Assembly: GCA_034430675.1 (NCBI GenBank)
Contig: DAOUEB010000048.1
Coordinates: 1-55,287, forward strand
Direction of reading: 5' to 3'
Source: Dehalococcoidales bacterium
Lineage (GTDB): Bacteria > Chloroflexota > Dehalococcoidia > Dehalococcoidales > RBG-16-60-22
DNA: 55,287 nt
Position 1 is the first letter of the stretch; the number at the start of each line of letters is the position of its first letter. The notes under the pieces are model-generated. The model was not told the origin of the DNA and did not search any database. It saw only the letters and a program-made list of their open reading frames with translations. Shown here in pieces: positions 17,502 to 43,095 of this stretch. Both the position numbers and the translations under genes were made by a program.

Positions 17502-17699
17502 GTGAAGTTTAGCGAATTGGTCAGACTGCTTGAAAAGAATGGATTTGAGCTTATACGTGAAAAAGGCTCTATCCGTTATTATACAAAGCCCGGACTGGAC
17601 AAGTTGATTAGAGTCGATTATCATGGTTCTAGGGAGATACCCTCGGGCACCTGTGAAGCCGTTTTAAAAGCGGCCGGCATTAAGAAAAAAGGTAAGTAG
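17502..17699 (+). CDS. hicA: HicA-family toxin (mRNA interferase-like)
   Basis: MKFSELVRLLEKNGFELIREKGS matches the HicA/YcfA N-terminal pattern. GTG start. Note GSIRYY where many HicA proteins have GSH. Confidence 0.7.
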   Translation: MKFSELVRLLEKNGFELIREKGSIRYYTKPGLDKLIRVDYHGSREIPSGTCEAVLKAAGIKKKGK

Positions 17700-17701
17700 C
17701 G

Positions 17702-17950
17702 ATGATAGAACTAAAATATTCTTTGGTGATAGAAGCCACCGAAGACCCCACCTTCTTTACCTTCTTCTCAACTGACCTGGAAGGTTTTACCGGCGTGGGG
17801 CATTCTGTGGAGGACTGTCTTTATCAGGCAAAGTGGGGCATGGAAGAATATATCGCTCTCCTTAAAGAGCGCGGTCTACCCGTTTTAAAACCCAATTCTG
17901 AACCTACCGTCGTAATAAGGAACACGGAACGGTTTTCAGCCGTTAGATAG
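17702..17950 (+). CDS. hicB: HicB-family antitoxin (N-terminal domain only)
   Basis: The pattern YSLVIEATEDPTFFTFFSTDLEGFTGVGHSVEDCLYQAKWGMEEYI is typical of HicB/UPF0150. It starts 3 nt after hicA. Confidence 0.65.
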   Translation: MIELKYSLVIEATEDPTFFTFFSTDLEGFTGVGHSVEDCLYQAKWGMEEYIALLKERGLPVLKPNSEPTVVIRNTERFSAVR

Positions 17951-26840: not shown

Positions 26841-26890
26841 TTTACGACAAAAACCCGTAGTTAATAAAGAACATATGTGCTAATATTATC
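26841..26890 (+). promoter_or_regulatory. Promoter/operator copy 1: TACGACAAAA box plus AGAACATATGTGCTA operator overlapping the spacer and -10 (TAATAT)
   Basis: Aligns without gaps to 35409-35458, about 35 of 50 identical by my count. The 15-mer at 26868-26882 is identical to 35436-35450. Confidence 0.6.
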
Positions 26891-26916: not shown

Positions 26917-27069
26917 ATGAGCCTATTAAGGTTAGCTGTGAAAAACCAGAGGTGGGACCTGGCGGCTCACACTATTGTCCTGGCTACTGTCAGAGCACTG
27001 AACAAAGGAGAGCTTGATGCCGGAAAGAACAGGCAGAAAAAGTACCTCAAAGCGAAGCCAAAGCGATAA
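26917..27069 (+). CDS. Small basic ORF (50 aa), first gene after promoter copy 1
   Basis: ATG 26917 follows GGAGGG at a suitable spacing. It reads MSLLRLAVKNQRWDLAAHTIVLATVRALNKGELDAGKNRQKKYLKAKPKR. It is below the ORF-track cutoff and overlaps the next ORF out of frame. Confidence 0.3.
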   Translation: MSLLRLAVKNQRWDLAAHTIVLATVRALNKGELDAGKNRQKKYLKAKPKR

Positions 27070-27385
27070 AAAACAAAATTTTTATTCCAGAGTTCTGGAT
27101 GAAGCTGAAAAGCTTGACTTTGAGCTTGCGGCTGATGTTAATGGCATCGATGACGAGATTGCTTTGCTGAGGGTAAAAATAAAGTCGGTGCTGGAGAAGG
27201 ACCCGGAGAATATCAAGCTCATCATGCAGGCGACGAACGCCCTGGCGGGTTTGGTGAAGACGCGGTACAACATCACCGGGCAGCAGCGGAAGGGGCTGCG
27301 GGAGGCAATCGGCAACGTGCTGAGGGACGTGGCGCTGCCGCTGGGGATAAATATAGGGGCGAGTGTTATCGGGAAGCAGATATAG
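27014..27385 (+). CDS. Hypothetical phage-like protein upstream of the terminase (possible small terminase subunit)
   Basis: Its position immediately 5' of TerL, a basic N-terminus and a helical body. AAGGAG precedes the ATG at 27017. No motif-level assignment. Confidence 0.4.
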   Translation: MMPERTGRKSTSKRSQSDKKQNFYSRVLDEAEKLDFELAADVNGIDDEIALLRVKIKSVLEKDPENIKLIMQATNALAGLVKTRYNITGQQRKGLREAIGNVLRDVALPLGINIGASVIGKQI

Positions 27386-27404
27386 GAGATTGGGAATTAA
27401 TAGA

Positions 27405-27425
27405 AAGAGGGGCTTCGCCCCTCTT
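27405..27425 (+). terminator. GC-rich hairpin (9-bp stem, 3-nt loop) after ORF 27014..27385
   Basis: aagaggggc-ttc-gcccctctt. There is no U-tract, so terminator function is uncertain. Confidence 0.3.
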
Positions 27426-27463
27426 AGACGCCCCATGTGGGGGCTGGGGACAAATTGAGGGAC

Positions 27464-27535
27464 GGATTGCTTCGCTACGCTCGCAATGACAGGAAGCGTA
27501 CGGATTGCTTCGTCGCTGCGCGGCTCGCAATGACA
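27464..27535 (+). repeat. Two tandem family-A repeat units immediately upstream of TerL
   Basis: ggattgcttcgctacgctcgcaatgaca (27464-27491) and ggattgcttcgtcgctgcgcggctcgcaatgaca (27502-27535). Confidence 0.8.
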
Positions 27536-27549
27536 GAAGTGGGTGAAAA

Positions 27550-28944
27550 GTGGATGAAAATATATCTATAAACAGGCTGCGGCCTTACCAGCGGGAGGTA
27601 GCGGTGGCGGTGCTGGATAGCGTGTTCGGGGGGAAGGGTTTTACCTTCTCGGTGGAAATCGCGAGGCAGGGGGGCAAAAACGAGCTTTCGGCACAGCTGG
27701 AATTGCTCCTGCTGACCCTCCACATGGGGGAGTCTAAGAATTTAATAAAATGCTCGCCGACGTTCAAGCCGCAGGCGGCGATATCGATGAGGAGGCTCAA
27801 AGACAGGCTCAACGACGCCGGATTCCGGGGCATATGGAAGTCGGAGCTCGGCTACACGGTAAGACTCGGCGACGCCCGGGCGATTTTCCTCTCGGCGGAG
27901 GAAACAGCCAACGTGGTCGGTAACACGGCCCACCTGCTCCTGGAAATCGACGAGTCGCAGGACGTCGGCAAAGAAAAATACACCAAGGAGTTCAAGCCGA
28001 TGGGGGCGACGACCAACGTCACGACCGTCCATTACGGCACGACCTGGGACGACACCACGCTGCTCGAGGAGGTCAAGCAGACGAACCTCGAACGGGAGCG
28101 CAAAGACGGCGTGAAGCGGCACTTCCGCTACGACTGGGAGGAGGTCGCCCGGCACAACCCGGACTACCGGGCTTATGTGGAGTTGGAGAGAGAACGATTG
28201 GGGGAGAACCACCCGCTGTTCCTGACGCAGTACCGCCTGCTGCCGATACACGGCGGGGGCGGATTCCTCAACGAACAGCAGAGGGCTCAGCTGCAGGGTG
28301 AGCACTCCCGGAAGCGACACGGTGAGCCGGGGAAGGTCTACGTGGCGGGAATCGACCTCGCCGGAGAAGCGGAGGAAATCGAAGGGAGCTATGCAAAAGC
28401 GGCCAAACACAGTCATGACTCAACAGTAGTAACAATCGGCGAGCTGGACTTTACGTCGGTCGATGAAATCGTCGGGGAGCCGGTCGTCAGAGTCGTCGAG
28501 CATTACCGGTGGACGGGGATAAAGCACACCGGGCTGTACGCTCGGCTGGCAGACATCATCAGGAAGGTGTGGCGGTGCCGGAGGGTAGTCGTCGACGCCA
28601 CCGGGGTAGGGGAGCCGGTGGCATCGTTCCTGCGAAAATCGCTCGGCACGCGGGTGACGCCGTTCAAGTTCACGCAGAAAAGCAAGAGCGAGCTGGGGTT
28701 CAACCTGCTGGCGGCGGTCAACGCGGGGCGGCTCAAGGTGTACCAGGGGGACGGCTCCGAGGAGTATCATGAGTTCTGGCAGGAGATGGAGAAGGCCAAA
28801 AGCACCTACCGGGCGAGCCAGACGATGAACTTCTACGTGGACGCGGCGCAGGGCCACGACGACTACCTGATGAGCCTGGCGCTTCTGGTGGAAGCGGCGC
28901 GGCTCTACGAGCCGAAAACCGCGAAGGGAGAAGAGAGGGAGTGA
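27550..28944 (+). CDS. terL: Phage terminase large subunit
   Basis: N-terminal ATPase region (EIARQGGKNE Walker-A-like; LLLEIDESQD Walker-B-like) and a C-terminal RNase H-fold nuclease region (GIDLAGE, VVVDATGVG, GHDDYLMSLALL). GTG start. Confidence 0.8.
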   Translation: MDENISINRLRPYQREVAVAVLDSVFGGKGFTFSVEIARQGGKNELSAQLELLLLTLHMGESKNLIKCSPTFKPQAAISMRRLKDRLNDAGFRGIWKSELGYTVRLGDARAIFLSAEETANVVGNTAHLLLEIDESQDVGKEKYTKEFKPMGATTNVTTVHYGTTWDDTTLLEEVKQTNLERERKDGVKRHFRYDWEEVARHNPDYRAYVELERERLGENHPLFLTQYRLLPIHGGGGFLNEQQRAQLQGEHSRKRHGEPGKVYVAGIDLAGEAEEIEGSYAKAAKHSHDSTVVTIGELDFTSVDEIVGEPVVRVVEHYRWTGIKHTGLYARLADIIRKVWRCRRVVVDATGVGEPVASFLRKSLGTRVTPFKFTQKSKSELGFNLLAAVNAGRLKVYQGDGSEEYHEFWQEMEKAKSTYRASQTMNFYVDAAQGHDDYLMSLALLVEAARLYEPKTAKGEERE

Positions 28945-28984: not shown

Positions 28985-29013
28985 TTGACAACCAATGGAT
29001 ACTATGGTATACT
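28985..29013 (+). promoter_or_regulatory. Near-consensus sigma-70 promoter with tandem 10-bp direct repeats over the -35
   Basis: TTGACA (28985-28990), a 17-nt spacer, then TATACT (29008-29013). ACTATTGTAA and ACTATTGACA are tandem at 28971-28990, and aagtaac recurs at 28946 and 28966. Confidence 0.55.
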
Positions 29014-29022
29014 GAAGTCACC

Positions 29023-29178
29023 ATGGAACAGAAAATCAAAACAAAGGGAAAATCAATAAAACTGAGAGCCGCAACTATTGAAAAGCTTGACAAATTGAGA
29101 CATAAAGGGCAAAGTTACGACGGAATAGTTTCGGAATTAATCGATCACTATGAAAAAGGGAAAGGATCGGGTGATTAG
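29023..29178 (+). CDS. Small putative DNA-binding protein, possibly ribbon-helix-helix-like (51 aa)
   Basis: MEQKIKTKGKSIKLRAATIEKLDKLRHKGQSYDGIVSELIDHYEKGKGSGD. The strand-helix-helix pattern (SIKL..ATIEKLDKL....SYDGIVSELI) resembles CopG/Arc-type proteins. It is below the ORF-track cutoff. Confidence 0.4.
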   Translation: MEQKIKTKGKSIKLRAATIEKLDKLRHKGQSYDGIVSELIDHYEKGKGSGD

Positions 29179-29235
29179 TTGTAGTTGAATATTGATTGAG
29201 ATATAACGATAGTGTCGGAATGAAGGAGGTGTGGT

Positions 29236-29838
29236 ATGCAAAGGATAAGCTTCAACTTCGACTATAAGAAGGCTACTCAAGAGCTCAATTATTTCGCTTT
29301 GAAAGAGGGGGGTGATATCAATAAGATGAAAGCCCTCAAATTAATATATTTCGCAGACCGATTTCATCTAAGGAAATATGGCCGCCTAATAACTAATGAT
29401 ATATATTTTGCTATGGATTATGGGCCTGTACCTTCAAATGTCAAAGACATTGCTGAAGAAACAAGTTTCCTTGGTGACAGTGAAAAGGACTATTCCTCAC
29501 AGTATATTTCCGTTATTGATAACCTTACCTTTAAATCTGTAAACCCGGTTGATAATGGTATATTTTCTGACTCAGATGTGGAAGCGTTAGACTATATTTG
29601 GGAGAGGTTTGGGCATCTTGATCAATTTGAACTCGCAGATATTACTCATGAATACCCCGAATGGAAAAGGCATGAAAAGGCATTAGATTTAGATCCCAGA
29701 ATTCAAATGTATCTGGAAGATTTTTTTGATGATCCAGATGCTGATGTTGAAAAGTGTTTTGAATTGAGTGATCAAGATAAGAATCTCCGCCGTGAACAGT
29801 TAGCAGAAATGGCCTACCTAGAATCTCTCTGGAGGTAG
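29236..29838 (+). CDS. Panacea (DUF4065) domain antitoxin-like protein (SocA/PanA type)
   Basis: KALKLIYFADRFHLRKYGRLITNDIYFAMDYGPVPSNVKDI and ELADITHEYPEWKRH match the DUF4065 pattern. Confidence 0.65.
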   Translation: MQRISFNFDYKKATQELNYFALKEGGDINKMKALKLIYFADRFHLRKYGRLITNDIYFAMDYGPVPSNVKDIAEETSFLGDSEKDYSSQYISVIDNLTFKSVNPVDNGIFSDSDVEALDYIWERFGHLDQFELADITHEYPEWKRHEKALDLDPRIQMYLEDFFDDPDADVEKCFELSDQDKNLRREQLAEMAYLESLWR

Positions 29839-29840
29839 CC

Positions 29841-30278
29841 TTGATTGATGTTCCTCCAGAAGTCGCCATCAGAGCCACTATACGACCTGGTTCTGTTTAT
29901 TATTTCACAGAAAGTAGCTTCAGTTCGTCAGAACCGCATTATTTCATTGTAATTAATATTAATCCCCATGAAGATAGAGTAATTTTTCTCGTATGCGCCT
30001 CTTCTCAAATTGAAAAGGTCAAACTACGTCAAAAAATGTGTCCGAATGAAACGTTAATTGAAATTTCCTCTAGTAAATATTCAAATTTTCACGTTGATTC
30101 AATTGTAGACTGTAATAAAGTAATAGAAAAAACTATTGATCATTTAGTAGAAAAGTTGGTACAAAGTAAACTCAAATTAAAAACTGAGATGGACATGAAT
30201 TTGGTGAAGCAATTACGGCAAGGAGTGTTACAAAGCCCCCTGGTTGAAAACCGAATTAAGGAATCATTACGTGATTAG
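29841..30278 (+). CDS. Unknown 145-aa protein coupled to the Panacea ORF (candidate toxin)
   Basis: TTG start 5 nt after GGAGG and 2 nt after the upstream stop. The N-terminal half (PGSVYYF ... HYFIVININP ... VIFLVCASS) is reminiscent of an SH3-like PemK/MazF barrel, but that is unconfirmed. Confidence 0.45.
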   Translation: MIDVPPEVAIRATIRPGSVYYFTESSFSSSEPHYFIVININPHEDRVIFLVCASSQIEKVKLRQKMCPNETLIEISSSKYSNFHVDSIVDCNKVIEKTIDHLVEKLVQSKLKLKTEMDMNLVKQLRQGVLQSPLVENRIKESLRD

Positions 30279-30344
30279 AATATATAACCAACTTGGCTCA
30301 TATCATTTTGGGTTTTCACTGTCCTGTCATAGTGTGTAGGTAAC

Positions 30345-30445
30345 TAACGAGATAAGCCGCAGATGGTGCGGGGGCGGCCCGCCTACGCCGAGGCTTCGGC
30401 GGGCAAGTCGGGGTGGGAAAAGATAACATGCGATGGGGGGGTAAG
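30345..30445 (-). repeat. Family-C dispersed repeat, copy 2 (inverted relative to copy 1)
   Basis: Its reverse complement shares gttatcttttcccaccc, cttgcccgccg and gcgtaggcgggccgccc with 16255-16385. It lacks the ~35-nt internal segment of copy 1. Confidence 0.75.
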
Positions 30446-30516
30446 GGGGGGCGTTAGTGCTCCCCCTTTTTTTTATGATATTATTGGGTCGAACGGCACT
30501 TTTAGGGAGGGTTTTC

Positions 30517-31215
30517 ATGGCGGATAAAGATTTGGAAGCCAGAGTGGCGGCGCTGGAGAAAGAACTCCAGAGGCTGAAAGACATCGAGGCGATACGCAAG
30601 CTGGAGCACGCCTACAGCTTTTACCTGGTCATGTGGATGCCCGACGAGATAATGGACCTGTTTTCATGGAGGGACGACACAACGCTGGAATGGCCGGAGG
30701 GGACGTTCTACGGCAAGGACGGCTTGAAACGGTTCTTCGGGAACATCAACCCGAATAAAGACCCGGAGTTCATGCACCAGATGATGCACCTTTCGGACGT
30801 AATCGATATAGCCGGGGATGGAAAGACCGGCCAGGGGCGCTGGTGGGGATTCGGGGCGATGGCCCTGCCCATGGGCGACATGGGCGTCAACCAGGCGCTG
30901 GCCTGCGGCATCTACGAGAACGACTTCATTAAAGAGGATGGCGTCTGGAAGCTGTGGAAAATCAAGTGGGTGCCCGTGTACTCCGGGACACCGGCGCGGG
31001 GATGGGTTAAAGAGGAGAGGGTCGCCAGGCCGCGGCCGCCCAGAGAAGGCGAAGAAATGAGGCTGCCCGAATGGTGGCAGTCGGACAAGCCGGCCAAGGG
31101 CATCGATTACGGATATCCCTCAGGTTATATACTGCCGTTCCACTTCCCGCACCCGGTGACCGGGAAGGCAACGGCCGAAGGTGAGAGAAACAAGCGCGTC
31201 AAAGGGGTGAAATAG
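30517..31215 (+). CDS. SnoaL/NTF2-like fold protein
   Basis: The pattern LEARVAALE..L.DIEAIRKLEHAYSFY is typical of SnoaL_4-type proteins. I moved the start to ATG 30517, after GGGAGGG. Confidence 0.5.
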   Translation: MADKDLEARVAALEKELQRLKDIEAIRKLEHAYSFYLVMWMPDEIMDLFSWRDDTTLEWPEGTFYGKDGLKRFFGNINPNKDPEFMHQMMHLSDVIDIAGDGKTGQGRWWGFGAMALPMGDMGVNQALACGIYENDFIKEDGVWKLWKIKWVPVYSGTPARGWVKEERVARPRPPREGEEMRLPEWWQSDKPAKGIDYGYPSGYILPFHFPHPVTGKATAEGERNKRVKGVK

Positions 31216-31378: not shown

Positions 31379-33100
31379 TTAGTAGTAGAAGGCAGTCCTC
31401 CTGCCCAGCCAGTAACCGATGCCAAAGATAAGTACCGCACCGATTCCGAGTATGGTATACAGCGCCCAGCTGGGGAAGGAACCGGGACCACCACCGGAAT
31501 AGAATTCGCCGGCACCGGTCCATTCACTTTCGTTGGAGGCGGCATCTACGGCCTGTACTCTCCAGTAGAAAGCGTCTTTGCGACCAGCCAGTTTGAGCTC
31601 CTCGGCTTCGGTCAGGGTGTAAGTGGAAAGCTCAATGTCAGTAATCTCCATGACAATGGAGGCTTCCGAGAAAGTATCGTCGGTGGCAATCTGGAGGACA
31701 TAGGTTACCGGCATGCTGTCATCGGTAACATCTTCCCAGCCGAAGGTTCCCGGAGATTTTAGTTTGACTCCCATCTCCGGTAACAGGGGCGGGGGTGTCT
31801 CCGGAGCTACCGATTCCACGGTATAGGTAATCGTATTGGTATTGGTGCCGTCGCTGACGGTTATGATATGCTCTCCGTGCGCGCTGGGCGGGGCCGTGAA
31901 GATAGACATGACCTGGCCGTTGGCATCGGCGGTTGCCGTGGCTACTTCCGTATCGTCGTATTTAATAGTAACCTCAGCATTCGGGGTAAAGCCGGCACCG
32001 CCGATGCCGATACTGGAACCGATAGTGTCACCGTCGGTGCTGATGCTGAGGACGGGGGTTGAGGTGGATGGGGGGGTGGGTGTGGGTTCGGGCGTGGGTT
32101 CAGGTTCGGGGGTGGGCTCGGTGGGAGGGGCTACGTTCAGGGTGAAACTGGCAACAGCAAGATTGGTGCCGTCATCAGCTTCCACCTGATATACTACGGC
32201 GTTTAACCCTGAAGGCACGATGAAAGATGCCGAAAAAGTACCTGAAGTGTCTGCTATTACCGGCGATAGTGTTTCCACCGGGTAAGCATTGAAGTATATT
32301 GTCGGTACCGCCCTTCTAGCGAAGCCGGTGCAGCTCATAAGCACGGTGGAGCCGGCCTCTCCCGACTGTGGTGTAATGAGTATGTCCGGCACTACGGTGA
32401 ACGTGGCGGTAACATCACTGCTGCCTACGGTCACGGTTATGGTATGGGCGCCGGCGACACTATCCGGGATGTAGATATAAGAATCAAGGCTACCGTTGGT
32501 CAGGGTTGTAGTACTGCCACTATCGATGATAACCGGGGTGCCATCATATGTGACAGTGATAGCGGTACTGGCGACATAGCCGGTGCCGACAATCCTCACG
32601 GCAGTATCTACGGGGCCGGTGGTGGGTGTAATGGTAATAGCGCCGGCGGCTATGGTGAACTGGGCTTTAGACTTAATGAGGGTAGCGCCTAACAAAGTGA
32701 CATAAATGTAGTAAGTACCGGAGGTAACGCTGACGTCAGCGGAACCATCGGTGAGTGTTGCGGGTAGCGTAAAGGTGGTGCTGAAATCCCCCTCGGTGGC
32801 GGTGTATTCTTCGCCAATAAGCGCATTCGCGACAACCTCGTAGCTATTGACGTTTGTATCAATGTACTGTCCTACTAAGGCTGAATTCTGAGCGAAGATA
32901 ACTCTGGCCCATTTTTCGCTGGTATCGGTACTCGGGGTGAAGTTAGTACCGCTGACGGTAATGGTGTCACCAACCTTACCCGAAGCCGGTGATGCCGTAA
33001 TATCATTGGTGGCGTGGACCGGCAATGCCGGTACGGCCATCAGCAAAAGTGACAGGATGAGCGTCACCACGAGCATTCTAATAATTCCTGTGTATTTCAT
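31379..33100 (-). CDS. Secreted surface protein with IPT/TIG-like Ig repeats, a PT-rich linker, an Fn3-like module and a C-terminal TM anchor
   Basis: Signal peptide (LLMAVPALPVHA). Repeated units of the type I(T/S)P..G..G..V.V.G.GF. A PTEPTPEPEPTPEPTPTPP linker. YWRVQAVDAASNESEWT. C-terminal WALYTILGIGAVLIFGIGYWLGRRTAFYY. Confidence 0.7.
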   Translation of the reverse strand: MKYTGIIRMLVVTLILSLLLMAVPALPVHATNDITASPASGKVGDTITVSGTNFTPSTDTSEKWARVIFAQNSALVGQYIDTNVNSYEVVANALIGEEYTATEGDFSTTFTLPATLTDGSADVSVTSGTYYIYVTLLGATLIKSKAQFTIAAGAITITPTTGPVDTAVRIVGTGYVASTAITVTYDGTPVIIDSGSTTTLTNGSLDSYIYIPDSVAGAHTITVTVGSSDVTATFTVVPDILITPQSGEAGSTVLMSCTGFARRAVPTIYFNAYPVETLSPVIADTSGTFSASFIVPSGLNAVVYQVEADDGTNLAVASFTLNVAPPTEPTPEPEPTPEPTPTPPSTSTPVLSISTDGDTIGSSIGIGGAGFTPNAEVTIKYDDTEVATATADANGQVMSIFTAPPSAHGEHIITVSDGTNTNTITYTVESVAPETPPPLLPEMGVKLKSPGTFGWEDVTDDSMPVTYVLQIATDDTFSEASIVMEITDIELSTYTLTEAEELKLAGRKDAFYWRVQAVDAASNESEWTGAGEFYSGGGPGSFPSWALYTILGIGAVLIFGIGYWLGRRTAFYY

Positions 33101-33184
33101 TTCAGCCTCCTGAATAAAGTATTAATATTTTATCGTGTACCAGATAAACTCCCCATTTTATATAACGTTACCACCACTCAAAAG

Positions 33185-35050
33185 TTAGTCCGGCGGCTGG
33201 TAGGCGGTGCGCCTGCCCCACCGGAAAGCAAAATACACAATGATAATGACCCCGATACCTATCAAGGTATATATTAACCAGCCAGGAAAAGTGAATGAAG
33301 AGTCGATATAGAATGAGCTGGGAGCTGACCAATCGCTTTCGTTGTTAACGCTATCTATGGCTTTTACCCTCCAGTAATAGGCTATTTCCCGTTCGAGTTC
33401 CAGTTCATCTTCTTCGGTCAGGAGGTAGTCGGAAGAGGTCAGCCCTGTTTTCTCGAAGATGACGGACGTAAAATTCAGGTCCGTGGCGAGCTGCAGGTTA
33501 TAAGTCATCGGCAGGCTGTAACTGGTGACAGCCTGCCAGTTAAAGAGCACCGGCATATCCGACATACTATCCGATGCCGGCGTCAGCAATACCGGCGCTT
33601 GCGGTGCGTTTATGTAGAACGACCACGGTTCAGACCACTCGCTTTCATTGCCAGCGCCATCTATGGCTTTTACCCTCCAGAAGTAGAGGACGGTTTCAGC
33701 GACTGCGATGAGTTTTTCTTCCCCGGTCAGGTTATATTCTGATTCGGTCAGTCCTTCTTTTACCAAAACCAGGGACGAGAAATTCTGGTCGGAAGCTAAC
33801 TGAAGGTTATAAACCACGGGCAGACTGGGGTCGGTAACATCATACCAATCGAGGAAGGCTTCGGACCTTGCCTCGCTGCTGTTGTGAGGCAGCTTCAGGG
33901 CAGGATTCTGTGGGGCTTCCGATTCCACGGTGAAGGCAAGCTGTTTGGTGGTGGTGCCGTCGCTGACGGTGATAACGTGACTGCCGCTACCGCTGGAAGG
34001 GACATAAAAAGTTATGGTGAAGCCACCATTATTATCAGCTGTGGCCGTACCGACACGCAGATTATCGTAGTCCACGGTAACCGTTTCTCCAACTTCAAAG
34101 CCGCTACCCCGAACGGTAATTGTGCTGCCGACGGAGCCGGTGGTCTGGCTCAGGCTAGCCCCGGCGGTGACGGTGAACTTTACTTTATCCACATTATCTG
34201 CTTCGTCCTTTGCCTTGACATCGTACTGATTGGGTTTAATATCCGGCACGTTGAATTCAATATCGAAGTTGCCGTAATCATCTGTTTTGACGGTAGCCAC
34301 GGTGAAGTTGCCGAAGGTGATATTAACCTTGCTCCGATAACCAAAACCGGTGCCGCTGGCATTCAGCAATTCTCTGGACCCACCGGAGGTCAGGTTGAGC
34401 TTCAGGTCCGGGAGCACCTCGAATTCAGCCTCAGCCAGGTGACCTTCGGCATTGGACGCGGTAATCTTGTGAATACCCCCGATACTATTGGGTATGGTGA
34501 AGCTATGGCTGAACTGGCCCACGGAAGAAGCGGTTACCGTATTGATGATATCCTCAACAATATTGTAATAGTACAGGGTGACCGTCCTTCCGGCGTAGAA
34601 GCCGATGCCGATGATAGTGACTTCAGTGCCGGCAGGGCCGTCAACAACATCCAGAGTTATGCCAGGCTCTTCAACGATGAAAAAGTTATTGGCCAGGGAG
34701 TCCGTGGAGTCGGCTTCGCTTTTTATCCGAATCCAGTGACGGCCGGGGGTGGCAGTGGCGGGGATGGTAAACGGGATAGTGAACTCACCTGTCTGAGGGA
34801 CGGTGAGCGGACTGCTGCCGGATATTTCTGTGCTGTCAAAGAATATATGAATGCTATCACCTTTATAGGAGTCGAAAACAGTGCCGGATATAGTCACCTT
34901 GGTTCCGACGGCGCCAGAGGCGGGGTCCAAAGTGACTACGGGCGCCGCCAGGGCAGGGGTGCTCATTAAGAGCACAGCGAGTAACGGTAAAATTATTACC
35001 AGCGAGAAGAAACGTTTATGATATCTTGCGGAGCATTCCGCTGTTTTCAT
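33185..35050 (-). CDS. Paralogous secreted surface protein (IPT/TIG-like repeats, two Fn3-like modules, C-terminal TM anchor)
   Basis: Signal peptide (LLMSTPALAAP). Repeated Ig-like units. FWRVKAIDGAGNESEWS and YWRVKAIDSVNNESDWS. C-terminal WLIYTLIGIGVIIIVYFAFRWGRRTAYQPPD. Confidence 0.7.
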   Translation of the reverse strand: MKTAECSARYHKRFFSLVIILPLLAVLLMSTPALAAPVVTLDPASGAVGTKVTISGTVFDSYKGDSIHIFFDSTEISGSSPLTVPQTGEFTIPFTIPATATPGRHWIRIKSEADSTDSLANNFFIVEEPGITLDVVDGPAGTEVTIIGIGFYAGRTVTLYYYNIVEDIINTVTASSVGQFSHSFTIPNSIGGIHKITASNAEGHLAEAEFEVLPDLKLNLTSGGSRELLNASGTGFGYRSKVNITFGNFTVATVKTDDYGNFDIEFNVPDIKPNQYDVKAKDEADNVDKVKFTVTAGASLSQTTGSVGSTITVRGSGFEVGETVTVDYDNLRVGTATADNNGGFTITFYVPSSGSGSHVITVSDGTTTKQLAFTVESEAPQNPALKLPHNSSEARSEAFLDWYDVTDPSLPVVYNLQLASDQNFSSLVLVKEGLTESEYNLTGEEKLIAVAETVLYFWRVKAIDGAGNESEWSEPWSFYINAPQAPVLLTPASDSMSDMPVLFNWQAVTSYSLPMTYNLQLATDLNFTSVIFEKTGLTSSDYLLTEEDELELEREIAYYWRVKAIDSVNNESDWSAPSSFYIDSSFTFPGWLIYTLIGIGVIIIVYFAFRWGRRTAYQPPD

Positions 35051-35113
35051 GCTGGCCTCCTTGTGGAGGGGATTCGTTGCCGGGTAGTACCGATTTCTTT
35101 TCGTCGGCTCCTT

Positions 35114-35320
35114 TCACTGTACTAGTCTTCTCCTGGCGCCGCGACTCGGATTATATGTCCCGGCGAAGTTGTCCAGGGTATCTTTGTTAATGAGCCAGGT
35201 GTTATGAATCTTGGTAGCCGGGATGTCTCCCTGGCGGCATAGCCGTTTCACCGTTTCCGGATGAACCTTGAGACGGCGACTGGCCTCAATCACATTAAGA
35301 TAATTATCCCAGACCGGCAT
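35114..35320 (-). CDS. Excisionase/MerR-type helix-turn-helix protein
   Basis: LNVIEASRRLKVHPETVKRLCRQGDIPATKI matches the HTH_17/excisionase pattern. It is divergent from the phage-like operon. Confidence 0.6.
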   Translation of the reverse strand: MPVWDNYLNVIEASRRLKVHPETVKRLCRQGDIPATKIHNTWLINKDTLDNFAGTYNPSRGARRRLVQ

Positions 35321-35408
35321 TTTATTCTCTTAACATTCCTTAATAAATATTGCTTTATCAAAGCAATTATAACATTCCCGAACACATTTGTCAAGCATTG
35401 GCGCCCAA

Positions 35409-35458
35409 AATACGACAAAATTCCATTGACGAAATAGAACATATGTGCTATTCTAACC
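35409..35458 (+). promoter_or_regulatory. Promoter/operator copy 2: TACGACAAAA box, TTGACG, 17-nt spacer, TATTCT, with AGAACATATGTGCTA over the spacer and -10
   Basis: -35 at 35426-35431 and -10 at 35449-35454. The operator 15-mer at 35436-35450 is identical to 26868-26882. Confidence 0.65.
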
Positions 35459-35481: not shown

Positions 35482-35838
35482 ATGGATTTGGTGACGCGTG
35501 AGATTGGCGATGCTGAACAGGAAGAGAAGGAGGAAACCAGTAAGAATGAGCCGGATTTACCGCCGGAATACTGCCACTACCGGGATGAAGGATGCGAGTA
35601 TGCCGATTCCTGCCTGGACTGTCCGTTCCCGCAGTGCCTTTACGATGAACCGCGCGGGAGGCAGCGCTGGCTGAAGGAATTACGGAACAGGGAGATAAAC
35701 AGGCTTTTTACAGGAGGGTGGGGGGTCAAGGAACTGGCATTATTGTTCGGGGTGAGCCAGAGGACGATACAGAGGGCGTTAAATAACACTTTACCTACCT
35801 CACCTATAAAGCAGAGCGAGGAACCCGATAAACGGTAA
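35482..35838 (+). CDS. Cysteine-cluster plus HTH regulator (phage-like)
   Basis: Five Cys in 22 residues (CHYRDEGCEYADSCLDCPFPQC) followed by GGWGVKELALLFGVSQRTIQRAL, a helix-turn-helix. Confidence 0.5.
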   Translation: MDLVTREIGDAEQEEKEETSKNEPDLPPEYCHYRDEGCEYADSCLDCPFPQCLYDEPRGRQRWLKELRNREINRLFTGGWGVKELALLFGVSQRTIQRALNNTLPTSPIKQSEEPDKR

Positions 35839-35863
35839 GACTATTTATTAAGGAGAAAGAAAC

Positions 35864-37252
35864 ATGGCGAACGAAACGGTCACCGCACAGTTGAATCGCC
35901 TTGACCCGGAAAGGCTCAGGGGCTATAAAGAGCTACTCGATTTCTATAACGGCCATCAGTGGGAAGGGAGAGAGAGGCGGGGCGAGCGGCGCCTGATTTT
36001 CAACTATGCCAGAGTCTTCGTGGAGAAAATAACATCGTACTTAATGACCGGCATAAGCTTCGCCGTCGACCCCTTTGAGGATTCGGACGAGGCGAGAGCC
36101 AGGGCGAGGAAGGCAGAGGCAGCCCTCTACAAGGTCTACGCGGACAATCAACTGGAGCAGCTCGACCTGGAGACGGAAATCGACTGCGCGGTGCTGGGTG
36201 ACGGCTGCTATAAGGTTACCTGGGACGCCGCCGAGAAAAGGGTCAGGGTGACGGCGCCGGACGTCCAGGGAATATATGCGTGGTGCTCGGGGGACGATGT
36301 CTCCCGGGTGTGGCGGGTGGCTTCCCGGTACCGGCTCTCCGCCGAGGAGGTCGAGCTTATCTACGGGGTAAAACCTCAGAAAAAGACGGCTATTATCGTT
36401 GAGCTGTGGACGGACAGGGATTTCGAGCTGTACCTGGACAATGCCTTAATTGAGGCCAAGCCCAATCCCTACGGTTTTATCCCGTTCATCGTCTTTCCCA
36501 ACCTGCGCGAGCCCAAGAAGTTCTGGGGGGTCTCCGACCTGCCGCAGATAATGGAGTCGCAGCGGGAGCTTAACCGCGCCATGAGCCAGCTATCGCGGAT
36601 ACTGGAGCTATCCGGGAACCCTATCGCCGTGCTGGAGAACGTGGAGGAGTCCGAGGACATCGCCATCAGGCCGGGGGCGGTGTGGAACATCCCGGAAGAC
36701 GCCAAGGCCTACCTGCTCGACCTGCTTCAGGGGGGCGGCGTCAACTTGCATATTAATTATATCGACCTGATATACCGGGCTTTGCACGACCTGTCCGAAT
36801 CGCCGAGGTCGGCTTTCGGGGGCATCGAGAGGGACATGTCCGGCGTGGCTCTGGAGATAGAGCTGCAACCGCTTTTACAGAAGGTCAGGCGGAAGAGGAT
36901 TATCCGGACGGCCGCATATAGTCGGCGCAACGAGATGATTCTCAAGCTGCTGACCCAGTACCGGGGCGAGGACTTCGGGGACAACCAGCTGCGGGTGGTG
37001 TGGGGGCCGGTACTGCCCAAGGACATGGAGAGAAAGGTGAGCAGCGAACAGGTCATGGTGCAGACGGGAATACACTCCCGGAGGACGGCCATGGACGAGG
37101 TCGGCGTGCGTGACCCCGACTACGAGTTCGAGCGGTGGCTGGAAGAAAGGGAGTCCATTCTCAAGATGAATAAAGAGCTTAATGCCAAATCCAGCAGGGG
37201 TGGAGCGAGAGAGGGAGATGTGCCGCCCCGGGCGGAAGGCGTTGAGGAGTAA
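35864..37252 (+). CDS. Phage portal protein (SPP1 gp6-like)
   Basis: YNGHQW, the NYARVFVEKITSYL segment, and its size and position before the scaffold and capsid genes. Confidence 0.8.
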   Translation: MANETVTAQLNRLDPERLRGYKELLDFYNGHQWEGRERRGERRLIFNYARVFVEKITSYLMTGISFAVDPFEDSDEARARARKAEAALYKVYADNQLEQLDLETEIDCAVLGDGCYKVTWDAAEKRVRVTAPDVQGIYAWCSGDDVSRVWRVASRYRLSAEEVELIYGVKPQKKTAIIVELWTDRDFELYLDNALIEAKPNPYGFIPFIVFPNLREPKKFWGVSDLPQIMESQRELNRAMSQLSRILELSGNPIAVLENVEESEDIAIRPGAVWNIPEDAKAYLLDLLQGGGVNLHINYIDLIYRALHDLSESPRSAFGGIERDMSGVALEIELQPLLQKVRRKRIIRTAAYSRRNEMILKLLTQYRGEDFGDNQLRVVWGPVLPKDMERKVSSEQVMVQTGIHSRRTAMDEVGVRDPDYEFERWLEERESILKMNKELNAKSSRGGAREGDVPPRAEGVEE

Positions 37253-37261
37253 TCAGGAGGA

Positions 37262-37759
37262 ATGATGGTTACGGAAAAAGAACAGGAAAAGACCGAAGAG
37301 TTAGAGGCGGACGTGGATGAGCTTGATAAGCTCAAGCAGGAGAACGAATCGCTTACCCGTGAGCTTGAGTCCCGCGACGCAACCATTATAAGGCTGGAGC
37401 AGGCGCTGGTGACGAAAGACAGCGAAATAACCGCGTTAAAGCAGTCGCTGGACGATACGGAGCAGTCGCTGGACGAGCTCGGCAAGGCCTTACCGCAGGC
37501 GGTAGCCGCCTATAAGGAAATCGTGGTGCAGGCGAACCCCGGCATCCTGACTGAGCTGATAGCCGGGGATTCCATCGAGGAAGTGAACGAATCGCTGAAG
37601 AACGCCCGGGCGCTCATGGAAAGAGTCAGACAGGAAATGGAAGCGGAAGCGGCGAAAACGAGAGTGCCTGCCGGCGCCCCGCAGAGGGCGCCATTAGACC
37701 TGTCGTCGCTCTCGGCCCGGGAGAAAATTCAATACGCAATAGGAGGTTCTTCGTCCTGA
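37262..37759 (+). CDS. Phage scaffolding protein
   Basis: Acidic coiled-coil protein of 165 aa between the portal and major capsid genes. Confidence 0.6.
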   Translation: MMVTEKEQEKTEELEADVDELDKLKQENESLTRELESRDATIIRLEQALVTKDSEITALKQSLDDTEQSLDELGKALPQAVAAYKEIVVQANPGILTELIAGDSIEEVNESLKNARALMERVRQEMEAEAAKTRVPAGAPQRAPLDLSSLSAREKIQYAIGGSSS

Positions 37760-37787
37760 TGCGTAAGAGCAGGCTACTCCCTCCCGG

Positions 37788-37915
37788 CTGGATTCTGGCC
37801 TGCGCCGGAATGACAGGTGAGTGAGAGAAGGGGGGGCGGATTGCTTCGCGGAGTTTATCCTGAGCGTAGCGTGAGGACTCGCAATGACAGGGGGAAAGCG
37901 TTCCCCGGAATGACA
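37788..37915. repeat. Cluster of family-B (ctggattc..gc..ggaatgaca) and family-A repeat units between the scaffold and capsid genes
   Basis: B unit at 37788-37815. A unit with an insert at 37838-37889. ccggaatgaca again at 37905-37915. Confidence 0.8.
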
Positions 37916-37961
37916 GATACAAACAAAACAGGAATTTTAAAAGAGGGAGGAGAAAAATAAA

Positions 37962-38882
37962 ATGGCAATGACTTTAGAAGAGGCAGCCAAGCTATCCAAC
38001 GATATGCTGCTGCAGGGGGTGGTGGAGACCATCGTCAAAGACTCGCCGGTGCTCCAGAGCCTGCCCTTTATCGAAATCGTGGGTAACGGCCTGACCTATA
38101 ACCAGGAAAAGACCCTGCCCAGCATCGACTTTTACGATGTCGGTGATACCTGGGCGGAATCGACGCCTACCTTCGAGCAAATTACCGCCAACCTGAAAAT
38201 CATGGGCGGTGACGCCGACGTGGACAACTTTCTTAAGTCCACCCGCAGCAATATCCAGGACCTGGAAGCGGCGGTAATCGAGCTGAAGGCCAAGGCACTC
38301 AAGGACAAGTTCGAAGAGATGTTTATCTACGGGGATTCCGACACCAATGCCAAGCAGTTCGACGGCTTGAGGAAACTCATCGATACCGAGTCGGCCAGCG
38401 ACCGGGTAGTGGCAATGGGGGCTACCGGCGCCACGCTGACCCTGGCCAAGCTCGACGAGCTTATCGACGCCGTCAAGGGCGGCAAGCCCGATATGCTGCT
38501 GATGAGTCGCCGTTCCAGGAGAAAAATCAATGTCCTGGTCAGGGCGGCCGGCGGCATGACCGAGACCGAACGGGACAAGTGGGGCAACTTCGTGCAGCTC
38601 TGGGACGGTGTGCCTATCGGCGTTAATGACTGGATACTGGATACCCACACCGTAGTTTCAAGCCTGGAAACAGGCACTACCGGGGGCACCTGCTCCACCA
38701 TCTACGCCGTGCAGTTCGGGGAGGGGGCCCTCTGCGGGCTGACCAGCCCGGGGCACCTGCAGGCCGAGCCGGTAGGGCCGCTGGAGAACAAGGATGCCTC
38801 GCGGACCAGGGTCAAGTGGTATGTATCTCTGGCGCTGTTTTCGTCCGTCAAGGCGGCGACATTAATCGGCGTCAAGGACTAA
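37962..38882 (+). CDS. Phage major capsid protein (HK97-fold type that uses a separate scaffold)
   Basis: 306 aa directly after the scaffold gene. The overall pattern (N-terminal LTLEEAAKLSND, FDGLRKLI, LTLAKLDELIDAV..GKPDMLLMS) is typical of major capsid families. Confidence 0.7.
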   Translation: MAMTLEEAAKLSNDMLLQGVVETIVKDSPVLQSLPFIEIVGNGLTYNQEKTLPSIDFYDVGDTWAESTPTFEQITANLKIMGGDADVDNFLKSTRSNIQDLEAAVIELKAKALKDKFEEMFIYGDSDTNAKQFDGLRKLIDTESASDRVVAMGATGATLTLAKLDELIDAVKGGKPDMLLMSRRSRRKINVLVRAAGGMTETERDKWGNFVQLWDGVPIGVNDWILDTHTVVSSLETGTTGGTCSTIYAVQFGEGALCGLTSPGHLQAEPVGPLENKDASRTRVKWYVSLALFSSVKAATLIGVKD

Positions 38883-38903
38883 AACTTTACATAAAGATAG
38901 ACA

Positions 38904-38925
38904 GGGGGAGGGAACTCCCTCCCCC
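38904..38925 (+). terminator. Perfect 9-bp GC hairpin (gggggaggg-aact-ccctccccc) 22 nt after the capsid stop
   Basis: Exact complementarity. There is no U-tract. It could attenuate read-through into the downstream genes. Confidence 0.35.
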
Positions 38926-38942
38926 TTACGGGAGGAAAAATT

Positions 38943-39407
38943 ATGGTACTGGCAGTAGTAGAACATATCGAGCACCCCTTCGCCAGGGGCAGCCTGACGG
39001 CGGACGGAGTGCAGTGGAGCGCCGAGCATACGACGACCACCGACGATTACGAGGAAGTCGAGAGCGTGACGATTAAGCCCCCGGCGCTGGGCGAAGTGCT
39101 GGAGTACGAGTTCGGGCTTACCTGCGCGGTAAAGTCGAGCGGTGCTACCGAATCCGTCCTTCTCAAGTGGCAGGCGCGCAACCAGGGTGGCACCTGGGTT
39201 GACCTTCATGACGAGGTAACCTATGCGGCTAACGCCTCTACTTACAGAGAATACACCTACAGCGGGCGCTTCAAACCGGTGGCCAACTTCGATGCGGTGC
39301 CTTTTGAAGTCCGGCTGATGGTTAAGTCGGGTGGCGCCGGAGGAGAAACCGCCACCGGCAAGACCAAGAGCTCAAGCTATGTCAAGGTAGTCTATTCGGC
39401 TTCGTGA
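38943..39407 (+). CDS. Hypothetical phage structural protein (beta-rich)
   Basis: GGGAGG RBS. Position within the structural operon. No recognisable motif. Confidence 0.45.
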   Translation: MVLAVVEHIEHPFARGSLTADGVQWSAEHTTTTDDYEEVESVTIKPPALGEVLEYEFGLTCAVKSSGATESVLLKWQARNQGGTWVDLHDEVTYAANASTYREYTYSGRFKPVANFDAVPFEVRLMVKSGGAGGETATGKTKSSSYVKVVYSAS

Positions 39408-40054
39408 GGTGTGTTGTGAAGTTTATATTTGACCCCAGTCTGGTGCTTTATCTGCCATTATATGAACAGGATGGCAGTTCCCTCTTGTCCAGGGACGCCT
39501 ACGGACATGTATGCACTGTAACGGGTGCTTTGTGGCGACCTGGCGGCAGGTACTTTGATGGCGTGGATGACAGGATTTATTGTGGGGATTCGGCAATACT
39601 TGACCTGGTTTCTGCGTTCACGCTGGAAATATGGGTTAAGACGACTGACACAGAAGGAGTGCTCCTAGCAAAGAGAACGACCCAAAGTGATTGGCCATTT
39701 GTATTCTACGTTGGTGCTTCGGTGACTCCTGCTCTCTATGCTGACGATGGTAGTGCAGATAGCGTTAGTTCTACATCAACGCTATCTGATGTTATGACGC
39801 ATGTGGTTGTAACCAGGGATGAAACTACCATTAACTTTTTCTTTAATGGTCAAGCGGATGCGGGCAACCCGCAAACACTGAAGAAGGGAAGCTCGGATGC
39901 CGATGCCAAATTTGCTATTGGGGCACAGTGGGTTGTTAATACTTGGAACAATCCTCTAATAGGGAATATCGGTGAAGCTCGCATTTACAGCCGTGTCCTA
40001 ACCCCACAGGAAATCCAACACAACTATCTGGCAACTAAATGGAGGTATCAATGA
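39404..40054 (+). CDS. LamG / concanavalin-A-like lectin domain protein
   Basis: The pattern FDGVDDRIYCGDS ... FTLEIWVKT ... ARIYSRVLTPQEIQHNY matches Laminin_G_3. Confidence 0.65.
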   Translation: MRCVVKFIFDPSLVLYLPLYEQDGSSLLSRDAYGHVCTVTGALWRPGGRYFDGVDDRIYCGDSAILDLVSAFTLEIWVKTTDTEGVLLAKRTTQSDWPFVFYVGASVTPALYADDGSADSVSSTSTLSDVMTHVVVTRDETTINFFFNGQADAGNPQTLKKGSSDADAKFAIGAQWVVNTWNNPLIGNIGEARIYSRVLTPQEIQHNYLATKWRYQ

Positions 40055-40263
40055 AGTACAGAGTGAGAGTGGACCTGAGCTTTGACAGCGAGGCCGATGC
40101 CCGGTCATTGATGGATTATGCCAGGACTTTAAGCGGCAAGGCGGTCAGCATCAACGAGAGCGAGCCCAATGAGGAGATAGCCTTCTGCGACCTGGAACTC
40201 TGCGGCCACGACGAAGGGCTGCCCTGCACCAAACTGGACAGGGTGGAAGTAAGAAAGCTATAA
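40051..40263 (+). CDS. Small hypothetical protein (70 aa)
   Basis: ATGA overlap with the LamG stop. No family recognised. Confidence 0.4.
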   Translation: MKYRVRVDLSFDSEADARSLMDYARTLSGKAVSINESEPNEEIAFCDLELCGHDEGLPCTKLDRVEVRKL

Positions 40264-40275
40264 GGAGTGGTAACT

Positions 40276-40908
40276 ATGAATCTGACTGATATGAGAGCCA
40301 TAGTCAGGCGTGACCTGCATGACGAGGACGCCGGTAACTATCGCTGGACAGACGATGAGATTAGCCGGCACATCGCTCACGCCGTTAAGGAGTTCTCCGA
40401 GCGGATACCTTATGAGCAGAAGGCGACCAAAGCCACGACATCGGCCTCGAGGGAGCTGGATATATCTACCGTAACCGACAGGGTTGTGGTGGAGGCCGTG
40501 GAGTACCCGGTAGACAGGTTCCCCAAAAGATACCAGCCTTTTTCGCTGTGGGGCGATACGCTGACTGTCCTCGGGGATGAGGTGCCGGACGGCTCCGATG
40601 CTTACATATACTATGGTAAGCTCCATACCCTCGATGCCGGCGGTTCCACCATACCCGCGCCGTATGAAGACCTGATTGCGGTCGGTGCCGGCGGCTTCGC
40701 CGCGATAGAGTGGGCGGTCTATGCGGTCAACCGGGTCAATGTCGGCGGGACGGTAACGCCGAAGGAGTTTCTCGACTGGGGTAACCGGAAGCTGAAGTAT
40801 TTCCGGCAGGAACTGAGGAGGCTGGGACGAAGAAACCGTGTCAGGACCAGCACTCTCTACCGTCCGTACTATCCAATCGTTTCGAAAACAACCGATTACG
40901 GCCCATAA
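40276..40908 (+). CDS. Hypothetical phage protein, possibly a head-tail adaptor
   Basis: AAGGAG lies 10 nt upstream of ATG 40276. The N-terminal pattern LTDMRAIVRRDLHDED....WTDDEISRHIAHAV resembles head-tail connector proteins. This is a weak call. Confidence 0.35.
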   Translation: MNLTDMRAIVRRDLHDEDAGNYRWTDDEISRHIAHAVKEFSERIPYEQKATKATTSASRELDISTVTDRVVVEAVEYPVDRFPKRYQPFSLWGDTLTVLGDEVPDGSDAYIYYGKLHTLDAGGSTIPAPYEDLIAVGAGGFAAIEWAVYAVNRVNVGGTVTPKEFLDWGNRKLKYFRQELRRLGRRNRVRTSTLYRPYYPIVSKTTDYGP

Positions 40909-40933
40909 TCGACCGGGGCACTGGAGTAAAGCG

Positions 40934-42937: not shown

Positions 42938-42982
42938 GTAAGGTACGAAGGAGGCATTGGAGATGAGTATGTTACCCCTTTT

Positions 42983-43056: not shown

Positions 43057-43095
43057 GTTTGGGTGTCTGATTTGTATTTTCGGAGGAATTCTATT

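Follow-up and report, generated by a model that had tools for sequence, protein, structure and literature searches.

The stretch of DNA analysed here, which we call the window, is 55,287 nucleotides of a Dehalococcoidales bacterium (phylum Chloroflexota, class Dehalococcoidia; GenBank assembly GCA_034430675.1, contig DAOUEB010000048.1, positions 1-55,287). In it a phage-derived element is surrounded by core chromosome, with polA, fpg, DAHP synthase, RNase P RNA, RNase H and a CT398-like zinc-ribbon gene. The head and packaging genes of the element are present, while Pfam and PHROG scans of 26.8-47 kb found no integrase, replication or lysogeny module and no CI-like gene. These genes form two operons, modules 1 and 2, and the promoters that head them, P1 and P2, contain the same operator-like site. 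We consider it fairly probable, judging from the sequence, that the host's LexA repressor occludes these sigma-70 promoters and that they serve a domesticated particle cluster resembling a gene transfer agent (GTA). DNA damage would probably switch on the production of virus-like particles. The parts of the two promoters are as follows.

26843-26852, plus strand: P1 upstream box TACGACAAAA, with its core GACAAAA at 26846-26852, approximately -47 to -41 from the inferred transcription start
26858-26863, plus strand: P1 hexamer TAGTTA in place of a -35, off consensus (TAGCCA is usual in the clade, TTGACA in distant lineages)
26867-26882, plus strand: P1 operator-like site AAGAACATATGTGCTA, with its core GAACATATGTGC at 26869-26880 in the spacer and a TG at 26878-26879
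26881-26886, plus strand: P1 -10 hexamer TAATAT, whose first two bases are the operator's last two
35411-35420, plus strand: P2 upstream box TACGACAAAA, with its core GACAAAA at 35414-35420
35426-35431, plus strand: P2 -35 hexamer TTGACG (TTGAC is kept in 41 'TTGAC-type' sites)
35435-35450, plus strand: P2 operator-like site TAGAACATATGTGCTA, with its core at 35437-35448 and a TG at 35446-35447
35449-35454, plus strand: P2 -10 hexamer TATTCT, preceded by TG

A first-pass annotation of the window had described these as homologous promoters sharing an upstream box and an exact 15-mer, and a recount agrees with it. The 50-mers at 26841-26890 and 35409-35458 align without gaps and are identical at 35 of 50 positions, the likeness being limited to about 45 nt, from TACGACAAAA to about 5 nt beyond the 15-mer AGAACATATGTGCTA (plus strand, 26868-26882 and 35436-35450). 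At both copies the 15-mer spans the spacer and runs into the -10 hexamer, TAATAT or TATTCT. The promoter proposed for the second copy is present as described, TTGACG being separated by 17 nt from TATTCT; the spacer at P1, from TAGTTA to TAATAT, is also 17 nt, and the start of GACAAAA lies 23 nt from GAAC in both. The two promoters, 8.6 kb apart, carry the same 16-bp site, and both cores read GAACATATGTGC, one base off GAAC-N4-GTTC (7 of 8 core positions matching), as the annotation had said. The 15-mer has only these two exact copies in the whole window. Allowing up to three mismatches adds only the opposite strand of each copy, since the sequence is almost a palindrome. The window contains no perfect GAAC-N4-GTTC, and its one-mismatch versions are at chance level (17 observed, 19 expected). 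Chance alone would be expected to give about 0.06 such 50-mer pairs within the window under its global composition and about 10 under the AT-rich local composition. Statistics from the window are only suggestive, and it is the comparative evidence that is decisive. We rejected the reading of the promoter stretch as an RNA element: an Rfam scan of the window returned only RNase P RNA and one tRNA, with nothing at the conserved stretch, and the palindrome is too short for a stable hairpin.

The genes behind the two promoters, all on the plus strand, are these.

26917-28944, plus strand: module 1 operon, headed by P1, with synteny in 80 loci
26917-27069, plus strand: o50 (50 aa), module 1
27014-27385, plus strand: o123 (123 aa), in the small-terminase position
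27550-28944, plus strand: large terminase, TerL (Pfam Terminase_6C; PHROG terminase)
35482-43308, plus strand: module 2 operon, headed by P2 (Pfam, PHROGs, synteny, dN/dS)
35482-35838, plus strand: o118 (118 aa), cysteine-rich with a helix-turn-helix (HTH), late-activator-like
35864-37252, plus strand: portal, SPP1-type
37262-37759, plus strand: scaffold-like protein, coiled-coil
37962-38882, plus strand: major capsid protein (MCP), HK97-type (PHROG 212, E = 1.5e-73)
40267-40908, plus strand: SU10-type adaptor
Module 2, plus strand: further proteins of 154 aa, Laminin_G_3, 74 aa, 699 aa (o699) and 103 aa (o103)

Relatives of TerL (62-90% identity) occur in 146 species-level genomes, and the 80 loci that we kept are all from metagenome-assembled genomes (MAGs) of Dehalococcoidia/Chloroflexota. 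Promoter sites were collected from the window and these loci at no more than two core mismatches. The filter returned 89 matches, one of them spurious (L010, position 18532), leaving 88 module heads. Collecting sites in this way somewhat inflates the conservation of the core; the contrast with the flanks, which have zero information content in the 89-site alignment, and the position before the first gene are unaffected. The architecture common to the 88 heads is aaaa-N3-GACAAAA-N5-(TTGAC or TAGCC)-N5-TAGAACAtaTGTGCTAnTaT, the 3' part reading N5-TA-GAAC-AtaT-GTGC-TAnTaT in its long form. G0, A2, C3, G8 and C11 are found in 89 of 89 sites and A1, A4 and T9 in at least 86, and the -10 positions T12, A13 and T17 in 88, 89 and 87. 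G10 is less constant (77/89), the right half-site being GTGC in 77 sites, GTTC in six and GTAC in six. The GACAAAA core is conserved to a degree comparable to the -35, though its register moves by 1 nt in roughly one site in four (22-23 nt before GAAC). In two loci the half-sites are kept and the centre has changed (TAGAACGTTAGTGCTA in L007, TAGTACACATGTTCTA in L024).

The homologous promoters that the annotation saw in the window are therefore conserved across Dehalococcoidia, at P1 and P2 and, in the distant lineages L060, L062, L066 and L067, at a third copy, P3, ahead of the scaffold and MCP genes, where the site is a perfect GAACTAATGTTC. The same motif is present on 17 IMG/VR fragments. 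In L020 and L038, two loci short of structural genes, the GAAC box of P1 has decayed and GACAAAA is retained. The annotation had allowed that the 15-mer might be part of a dispersed repeat found at many non-promoter sites. A search of 596 Gb (185,579 species genomes) with the strict pattern TACGACAAAA-N14-AGAACATATGTGCTA gave zero matches, and the looser composite GACAAAA-N15-16-GAACATATGTGCTA gave 61, all in Dehalococcoidia/Chloroflexota MAGs. All 61 were P1, P2 or P3 (before o50-o123-TerL, o118-portal or scaffold-MCP) or decayed remnants of them. The motif is specific to this element and is not a dispersed repeat. Three contigs of one MAG, BS750m-G39 (L094, L100 and L103), each carry the promoter and a nearly identical o50-like open reading frame (ORF); the genes behind each copy are unrelated ones of the host, tryptophanyl-tRNA synthetase among them. 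In this MAG the promoter and o50 may have spread, or been kept, as a unit by themselves. Alternatively, assembly or strain variation may account for the three copies.

The 80 loci repeat one gene order. On the host side DAHP synthase, Macro, S41 peptidase, RNase H and CT398 are followed by P1-o50-o123-TerL; after TerL come variable cargo, then immunoglobulin (Ig)-domain paralogues and a small gene, HTH_17, on the minus strand, and then P2-o118-portal-scaffold-capsid through to adaptor-o699-o103. The CT398-like gene (with RNase H) lies upstream in 40 of the 56 loci that have enough flank. The gap between TerL and o118 ranges from 36 nt to 9.8 kb among relatives, and in the distant loci L060-L067 and L072 o118 and portal lie within 36-200 nt of TerL. 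The contiguity of these distant clusters means that the window's modules are one cluster split by insertions of 1.5-9.8 kb. The annotation's two physically separated modules do share a promoter site, as it held, but they are not two phage-like elements; they are the halves of one element parted by cargo. IMG/VR adds about 199 short fragments of module 2.

The ratio of nonsynonymous to synonymous substitution rates (dN/dS) is lowest for portal (0.06-0.10), followed by the capsid protein (0.11), TerL (0.13-0.19) and o118 (0.19-0.20). These values, 0.06-0.20 in all, are within the range of the housekeeping genes on the flanks, where DAHP synthase gives 0.05-0.08 and S41 peptidase and CT398 give 0.14-0.29 (S41 0.14-0.16). 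The element and the host genes beside it also have dS values in one common range. The element is vertically inherited under purifying selection. Its maintenance is not universal. Structural genes are missing from L014, L020 and L038, where o118 is joined straight to o103 or o699, and in L119 and L082 the element has been deleted between the CT398-like gene and an FAD-dependent gene, leaving the promoter alone. In L097 P2-o118 stands alone beside host genes. This deletion series (L097, L014, L020, L038) shows that o118 can persist without the structural genes, and the deletion loci as a whole are useful for defining the element's borders. In L064, L074, L077 and L078 (TerL 62-65% identity) o123-TerL-portal continues an upstream operon, without o118 or the promoter motif; these distant relatives may be true prophages, kin to the ancestor from which the domesticated element came.

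What the conserved site might bind is suggested by its likeness to the SOS boxes of the phylum. The box is a 16-bp palindrome in all but one base (half-sites TAGAACAT and ATGTGCTA), and TA-flanked copies (TAGAACATATGTGCTA) are identical to the perfect palindrome TAGAACATATGTTCTA at 15 of 16 positions. A scan with TAGAACATATGTTCTA found 49 Chloroflexota among the 120 matches listed, most of the others being from Firmicutes and Actinobacteria, phyla in which GAAC-N4-GTTC is also in use. Dehalococcoides ethenogenes LexA reportedly binds the same sequence. The Chloroflexota copies usually lie between TTGAC and TAnnnT (for example gcTTGACggaaaTAGAACATATGTTCTAATAT in L255). Among the matches listed, the flanking genes include eight IMS Y-family polymerases, three RecA-like/ImuA proteins, two DnaE2 and two DUF6504 proteins. 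In L144 the box immediately precedes a gene whose product has a LexA DNA-binding domain (LexA_DNA_bind), and in L228, a Dehalococcoidia MAG, it is ahead of imuB-like and dnaE2 genes. GAAC-N4-GTTC is established as a Gram-positive SOS motif (PMC3323433).

Scanning for the promoter form, TTGAC-N3-6-TAGAAC-N4-GTTCTA, returned about 75% Chloroflexota among the matches listed, with RecA/ImuA downstream in 15 of 107 and IMS in nine. A true recA follows the box in L342 and L354, two loci whose host organisms were not seen, and IMS polymerase (imuB/dinB-like) genes follow it in the Dehalococcoidia loci L262 and L327. The hexamers after the box in these SOS promoters are TATTAT, TATCAT, TAATAT and TATTCT, the same as those seen in the element, TATTCT itself occurring in L272 and L354. 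TAGAAC-N4-GTTCTA thus stands ahead of a LexA_DNA_bind gene and of imuA-like, IMS and dnaE2 genes in the phylum, and ahead of imuB/dinB-like genes, in one case with dnaE2, in the class (Dehalococcoidia, n = 3 loci). The annotation's proposal that the operator resembles the Gram-positive-type LexA (Cheo) box is strengthened by the enrichment of the perfect palindrome and of its promoter form in Chloroflexota ahead of SOS-type genes, and at phylum or class level we found no host SOS genes with a different box. As read from their sequence, the element's promoters have the layout of the phylum's SOS promoters and differ from it in one base. They resemble the Cheo boxes of Firmicutes, Actinobacteria and Dehalococcoides in a near-match to the GAAC-N4-GT(T)C core, in the R-N-R-Y centre (ATAT) and in the position inside the core promoter. 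They differ from them in the right half, GTGC in about 87% of sites, whose conserved non-canonical base doubles as a TGn extended -10.

Two further sites were noted in the course of these scans. A GAAC-N4-GTTC upstream of polA in L051 lies within AT-rich cargo and was judged unrelated. In an Anaerolineaceae MAG (L312, 940-1100) an SOS region is divergent: one strand carries a canonical TAGAACAAGTGTTCTA promoter, and the other carries tandem boxes TAGAACTTGTGTGCT-TAGAACGTTCGTGCTA (TAGAAC-N4-GTGCT) before the gene for a membrane protein with an SLT domain, possibly a cell-wall enzyme induced by SOS. This is one example of the GTGC variant in an SOS context outside the element.

The conserved departure from GTTC, a T-to-G change, is best explained by an overlapping promoter element. 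GTGC followed by TAnnnT reads TGTGcTAnnnT, which corresponds to a TRTGn extended -10, and gives TGcTAATAT at P1, with its poor -35 (TAGTTA), and TGcTATTCT at P2. An extended -10 explains how P1, which is without a -35 in the window's clade (TAGTTA or TAGCCA), can function as a promoter nonetheless. The six sites in which GTTC is restored all have a TTGAC -35. The design would be one in which a single base of the LexA box has been traded for an extended -10, so that the same DNA serves both RNA polymerase and its repressor.

The quality of this extended -10 also raises the thought that the sites are simply a strong promoter that was duplicated and kept for its contacts with RNA polymerase (UP-like A tracts, -35, TRTGn and -10), with no repressor involved. 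The A-tracts at about -54 and -44 do resemble UP subsites, and the three promoters P1, P2 and P3 are plausibly duplicates of one another that arose inside a single element. Yet sigma-70 does not read the GAACA in the spacer, which is present in 86-89 of 89 sites, nor the palindrome's left TA flank, and both are conserved as strongly as the -10. The spacer sequence is moreover that of the phylum's SOS box, and six sites forgo the TG for a perfect GTTC. We regard a promoter without a repressor as quite improbable.

A repressor bound at the box would, as the annotation had foreseen, be expected to exclude RNA polymerase, because the box takes up the 17-nt spacer and its last two bases begin the -10. 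Several observations weigh against LexA as the binder. The identity of the SOS box comes from other Chloroflexota and three other Dehalococcoidia, not from the element-bearing genomes. The right half-site is GTGC rather than GTTC in 77 of 89 sites, and a base change there is, to our knowledge, unusual among the Gram-positive SOS boxes that have been characterised. An extended -10 cannot fully explain the G, since GTAC occurs in three P1 sites that are also without a -35 (L011, L015 and L023). The ATAT centre and TA flanks are more uniform than those of bona fide SOS promoters; this uniformity is partly an effect of ascertainment (no more than two mismatches) but could reflect a more specific binder. 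The GACAAAA box, finally, is not explained by LexA. Searches by tblastn found neither lexA nor recA in the window or in 138 Dehalococcoidia loci (1.38 Mb), the queries being B. subtilis and E. coli LexA, E. coli RecA and the LexA-like N-terminal domain of L144.

A more specific binder would most naturally be encoded by the element itself, either o118 or an unrecognised mimic of LexA, acting on the GAAC box as repressor or activator. o118 is found in nearly all motif-bearing lineages and matches PHROG 836, 'late transcriptional activator' (E = 7e-7; the match is confined to the HTH, and those to Pfam were below threshold). Its C-terminal three-helix HTH is confidently modelled, and the box is unusually uniform, the non-canonical G included. 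There is also a precedent in the Bacillus thuringiensis phage GIL01, whose gp6 is a LexA homologue acting on SOS-box-like sites of the late promoter (PMC6182141). The motif is missing where o118 is missing (L064, L074 and L077), but these lineages have no promoter at that position either, and this joint absence is uninformative because their operon continues upstream.

Against an element-encoded binder, a 15/16 match to the SOS box at the same promoter position would be a coincidence unless LexA specificity had been copied, and Pfam and PHROG scans found no LexA homologue among the element's proteins, none of which has a LexA_DNA_bind or S24 domain. A site in the spacer overlapping the -10 suits a repressor, not a late activator. 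A Foldseek search of the o118 model against the PDB gave nothing below E = 0.39, the non-significant matches being generic HTH proteins (GerE, sigma region 4 and Mor). We therefore think a dedicated regulator at the GAAC box unlikely, though it deserves to be taken seriously.

If LexA holds the GAAC box, o118 may have a role at the other conserved site. GACAAAA is probably an activator site, and o118 is the best candidate to bind it; more weakly, we infer that it would boost the promoters once LexA has gone, and P1 most. In the o118 model the C-terminal HTH is the only confident part (mean predicted local distance difference test score 55). Ahead of it is a cluster of five cysteines (C31, C38, C44, C47 and C52), invariant or nearly so, that no Pfam family or PDB match covers and that may bind metal or sense redox state. 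The family comprises 1,382 clusters, labelled only 'hypothetical' or as generic DNA-binding proteins. o118 resembles activators of the RinA/ArpU type (PHROG 836) in being a small HTH protein beside terminase and portal, with a box just upstream of the -35 in every module promoter. It differs from them in its invariant N-terminal five-cysteine cluster, for which the libraries offer no match.

These observations fit a picture in which, in the undamaged cell, a LexA dimer would cover the spacer and -10 at P1 and P2, and at P3 in the lineages that have it, blocking RNA polymerase. After DNA damage, RecA-stimulated self-cleavage of LexA would free the promoters together. P2, with its good -35, would fire and supply o118 and the head proteins; o118 would then reinforce P1 and so the terminase, and the outcome would be DNA-filled, podovirus-like particles. 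The T-to-G change would let P1 fire without a good -35 and probably lowers the affinity for LexA. The fuller proposal, that the order carries a vertically inherited podovirus-like GTA or other DNA-filled particle whose operons are locked by LexA and released by damage, with o118 as a second switch, is more tentative, and we would put it forward as a possibility somewhat short of even. As far as the sequence goes, such particles might be gene transfer agents, killer particles or something else.

Between the two halves of the element lie further genes, and a second conserved palindrome.

28985-31215, plus strand: inter-module cargo, comprising a 51-aa ORF, a SocA/Panacea protein with a 145-aa partner, and a SnoaL-like protein (Pfam)
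31379-35320, minus strand: divergent operon of the 68-aa HTH_17 gene and two Ig-domain paralogues (Pfam, synteny)
35114-35320, minus strand: HTH_17 (68 aa), excisionase/AlpA-like
33185-35050 and 31379-33100, minus strand: the two Ig-domain paralogues
35346-35370: conserved palindrome AATATTGCTTTATCAAAGCAATTAT (ATTGCTTT-ATC-AAAGCAAT, or TTGCTTT-N3-AAAGCAA), overlapping the -10 of the HTH_17 promoter

HTH_17 is encoded directly upstream of P2 and is highly conserved (74-96% identity and dN/dS of 0.05-0.14 among relatives), and elsewhere among bacteria AlpA-type proteins control lysis and particle genes that are phage-like. It was thus worth asking whether HTH_17 is the common regulator that binds the 15-mer. 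Its own promoter, at 35394..35366 on the minus strand, has a perfect consensus (TTGACA, 17 nt, TATAAT, with TG), but carries the different palindrome, which is conserved in more than 20 related loci, has a compensatory variant (TTGTTTTGTTAAAACAA) and is unrelated in sequence to the GAAC box. The distant lineages with contiguous clusters, moreover, have the GAAC box and no HTH_17 in the locus. On these two grounds we rejected HTH_17 as the common regulator, a role we consider very improbable. The TTGCTTT palindrome is probably an autoregulatory operator, or a leader hairpin, for the operon of HTH_17 and the Ig paralogues.

The Ig/TIG/GEVED-domain paralogues number one to three per locus, are fast-diverging (25-65% identity between species) and have internal repeats. 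They occur in the window (31379-35050) and in most related loci, always between the two modules and on the opposite strand, and they could be receptor-binding proteins of the particle or surface proteins of the host. The cargo directly after the terminase (29023-30278) is toxin-antitoxin-like, with the 51-aa ORF, which is ribbon-helix-helix-like by eye, the SocA/Panacea protein and its 145-aa partner; a consensus-like promoter of its own lies at 28985-29013. A HicA/HicB-like pair upstream of polA (17502-17950) is a second such cargo. At 43305-46154 on the minus strand, between o103 and o311, are three unannotated genes (308, 349 and 251 aa). These are probably lineage-specific cargo, as o103 is followed directly by o311 in L014, L020 and L038, which are without them. 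Short repeats resembling repetitive extragenic palindromes or miniature inverted-repeat transposable elements (...GGATTGCTTCG...CTCGCAATGACA) occupy intergenic gaps at 2120-2194, 16094, 27460-27535, 31230 and 37876; two are in tandem between o123 and the terminase gene, and another separates the scaffold gene from the capsid gene. In relatives the distance from o123 to TerL is anything from about 0 to 1.4 kb. No lysis or tail-fibre genes were recognised in the element, which looks podovirus-like, with its SU10-type adaptor and no tape measure.

The regulatory principle proposed here is already known from SOS-controlled phages, colicins and GTAs. In GIL01, a temperate phage of B. thuringiensis, host LexA together with gp7 represses P1, and gp6 activates the late promoter P3 (PMC4551915, PMC6182141). 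The element is similar in having phage-type promoters that would be controlled through host SOS boxes, no CI-type repressor and, to judge from its sequence, possibly a second factor of its own. GIL01 is a replicating tectivirus, whereas the element is chromosomal and vertically inherited, has its boxes on structural and packaging operons, and has no replication, integration or LexA genes that we could find.

The best-studied GTAs, RcGTA and that of Caulobacter, are controlled by the host and by a dedicated sigma-like or HTH activator, GafA or GafYZ (PMC5026251, PMC6363796, PMC9638019, PMC9632790). The element resembles them as a phage-derived head and packaging cluster under purifying selection and in synteny with host genes across species, and the separated loci of GTAs are co-regulated, as those of the element would be. 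Known GTAs are siphovirus-like and alphaproteobacterial (or belong to spirochaetes, Desulfovibrio or archaea), while this element belongs to Chloroflexota and looks podovirus-like. We know of no description of a link between GTAs and LexA in the form of SOS boxes on every structural operon. Colicin promoters have overlapping LexA boxes, and their costly, possibly lethal product is made only after DNA damage; pyocins and tailocins are induced by damage through the dedicated PrtR/PrtN. The element differs from both in its terminase, portal and capsid genes, which would give DNA-filled heads rather than a toxin or a headless tail.

Our literature search found no paper describing this element or a GTA of Dehalococcoidia. 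As far as the literature shows, the novelty lies in the element itself, its vertical inheritance throughout the order, the use of one operator for all its operons and the double role of the G. The same site in dozens of species, together with purifying selection and an SOS box for each operon, suggests damage-triggered particles kept by the host, not a dead prophage. Dehalococcoidia are abundant in aquifers, sediments and the deep subsurface, and are slow-growing and mostly uncultured. Gene exchange among them, including that of the mobile reductive-dehalogenase islands, is poorly understood. If the reading given here is true, the element would be the first GTA-like system in Chloroflexota, and would provide a route of gene exchange in organohalide-respiring and subsurface Dehalococcoidia.

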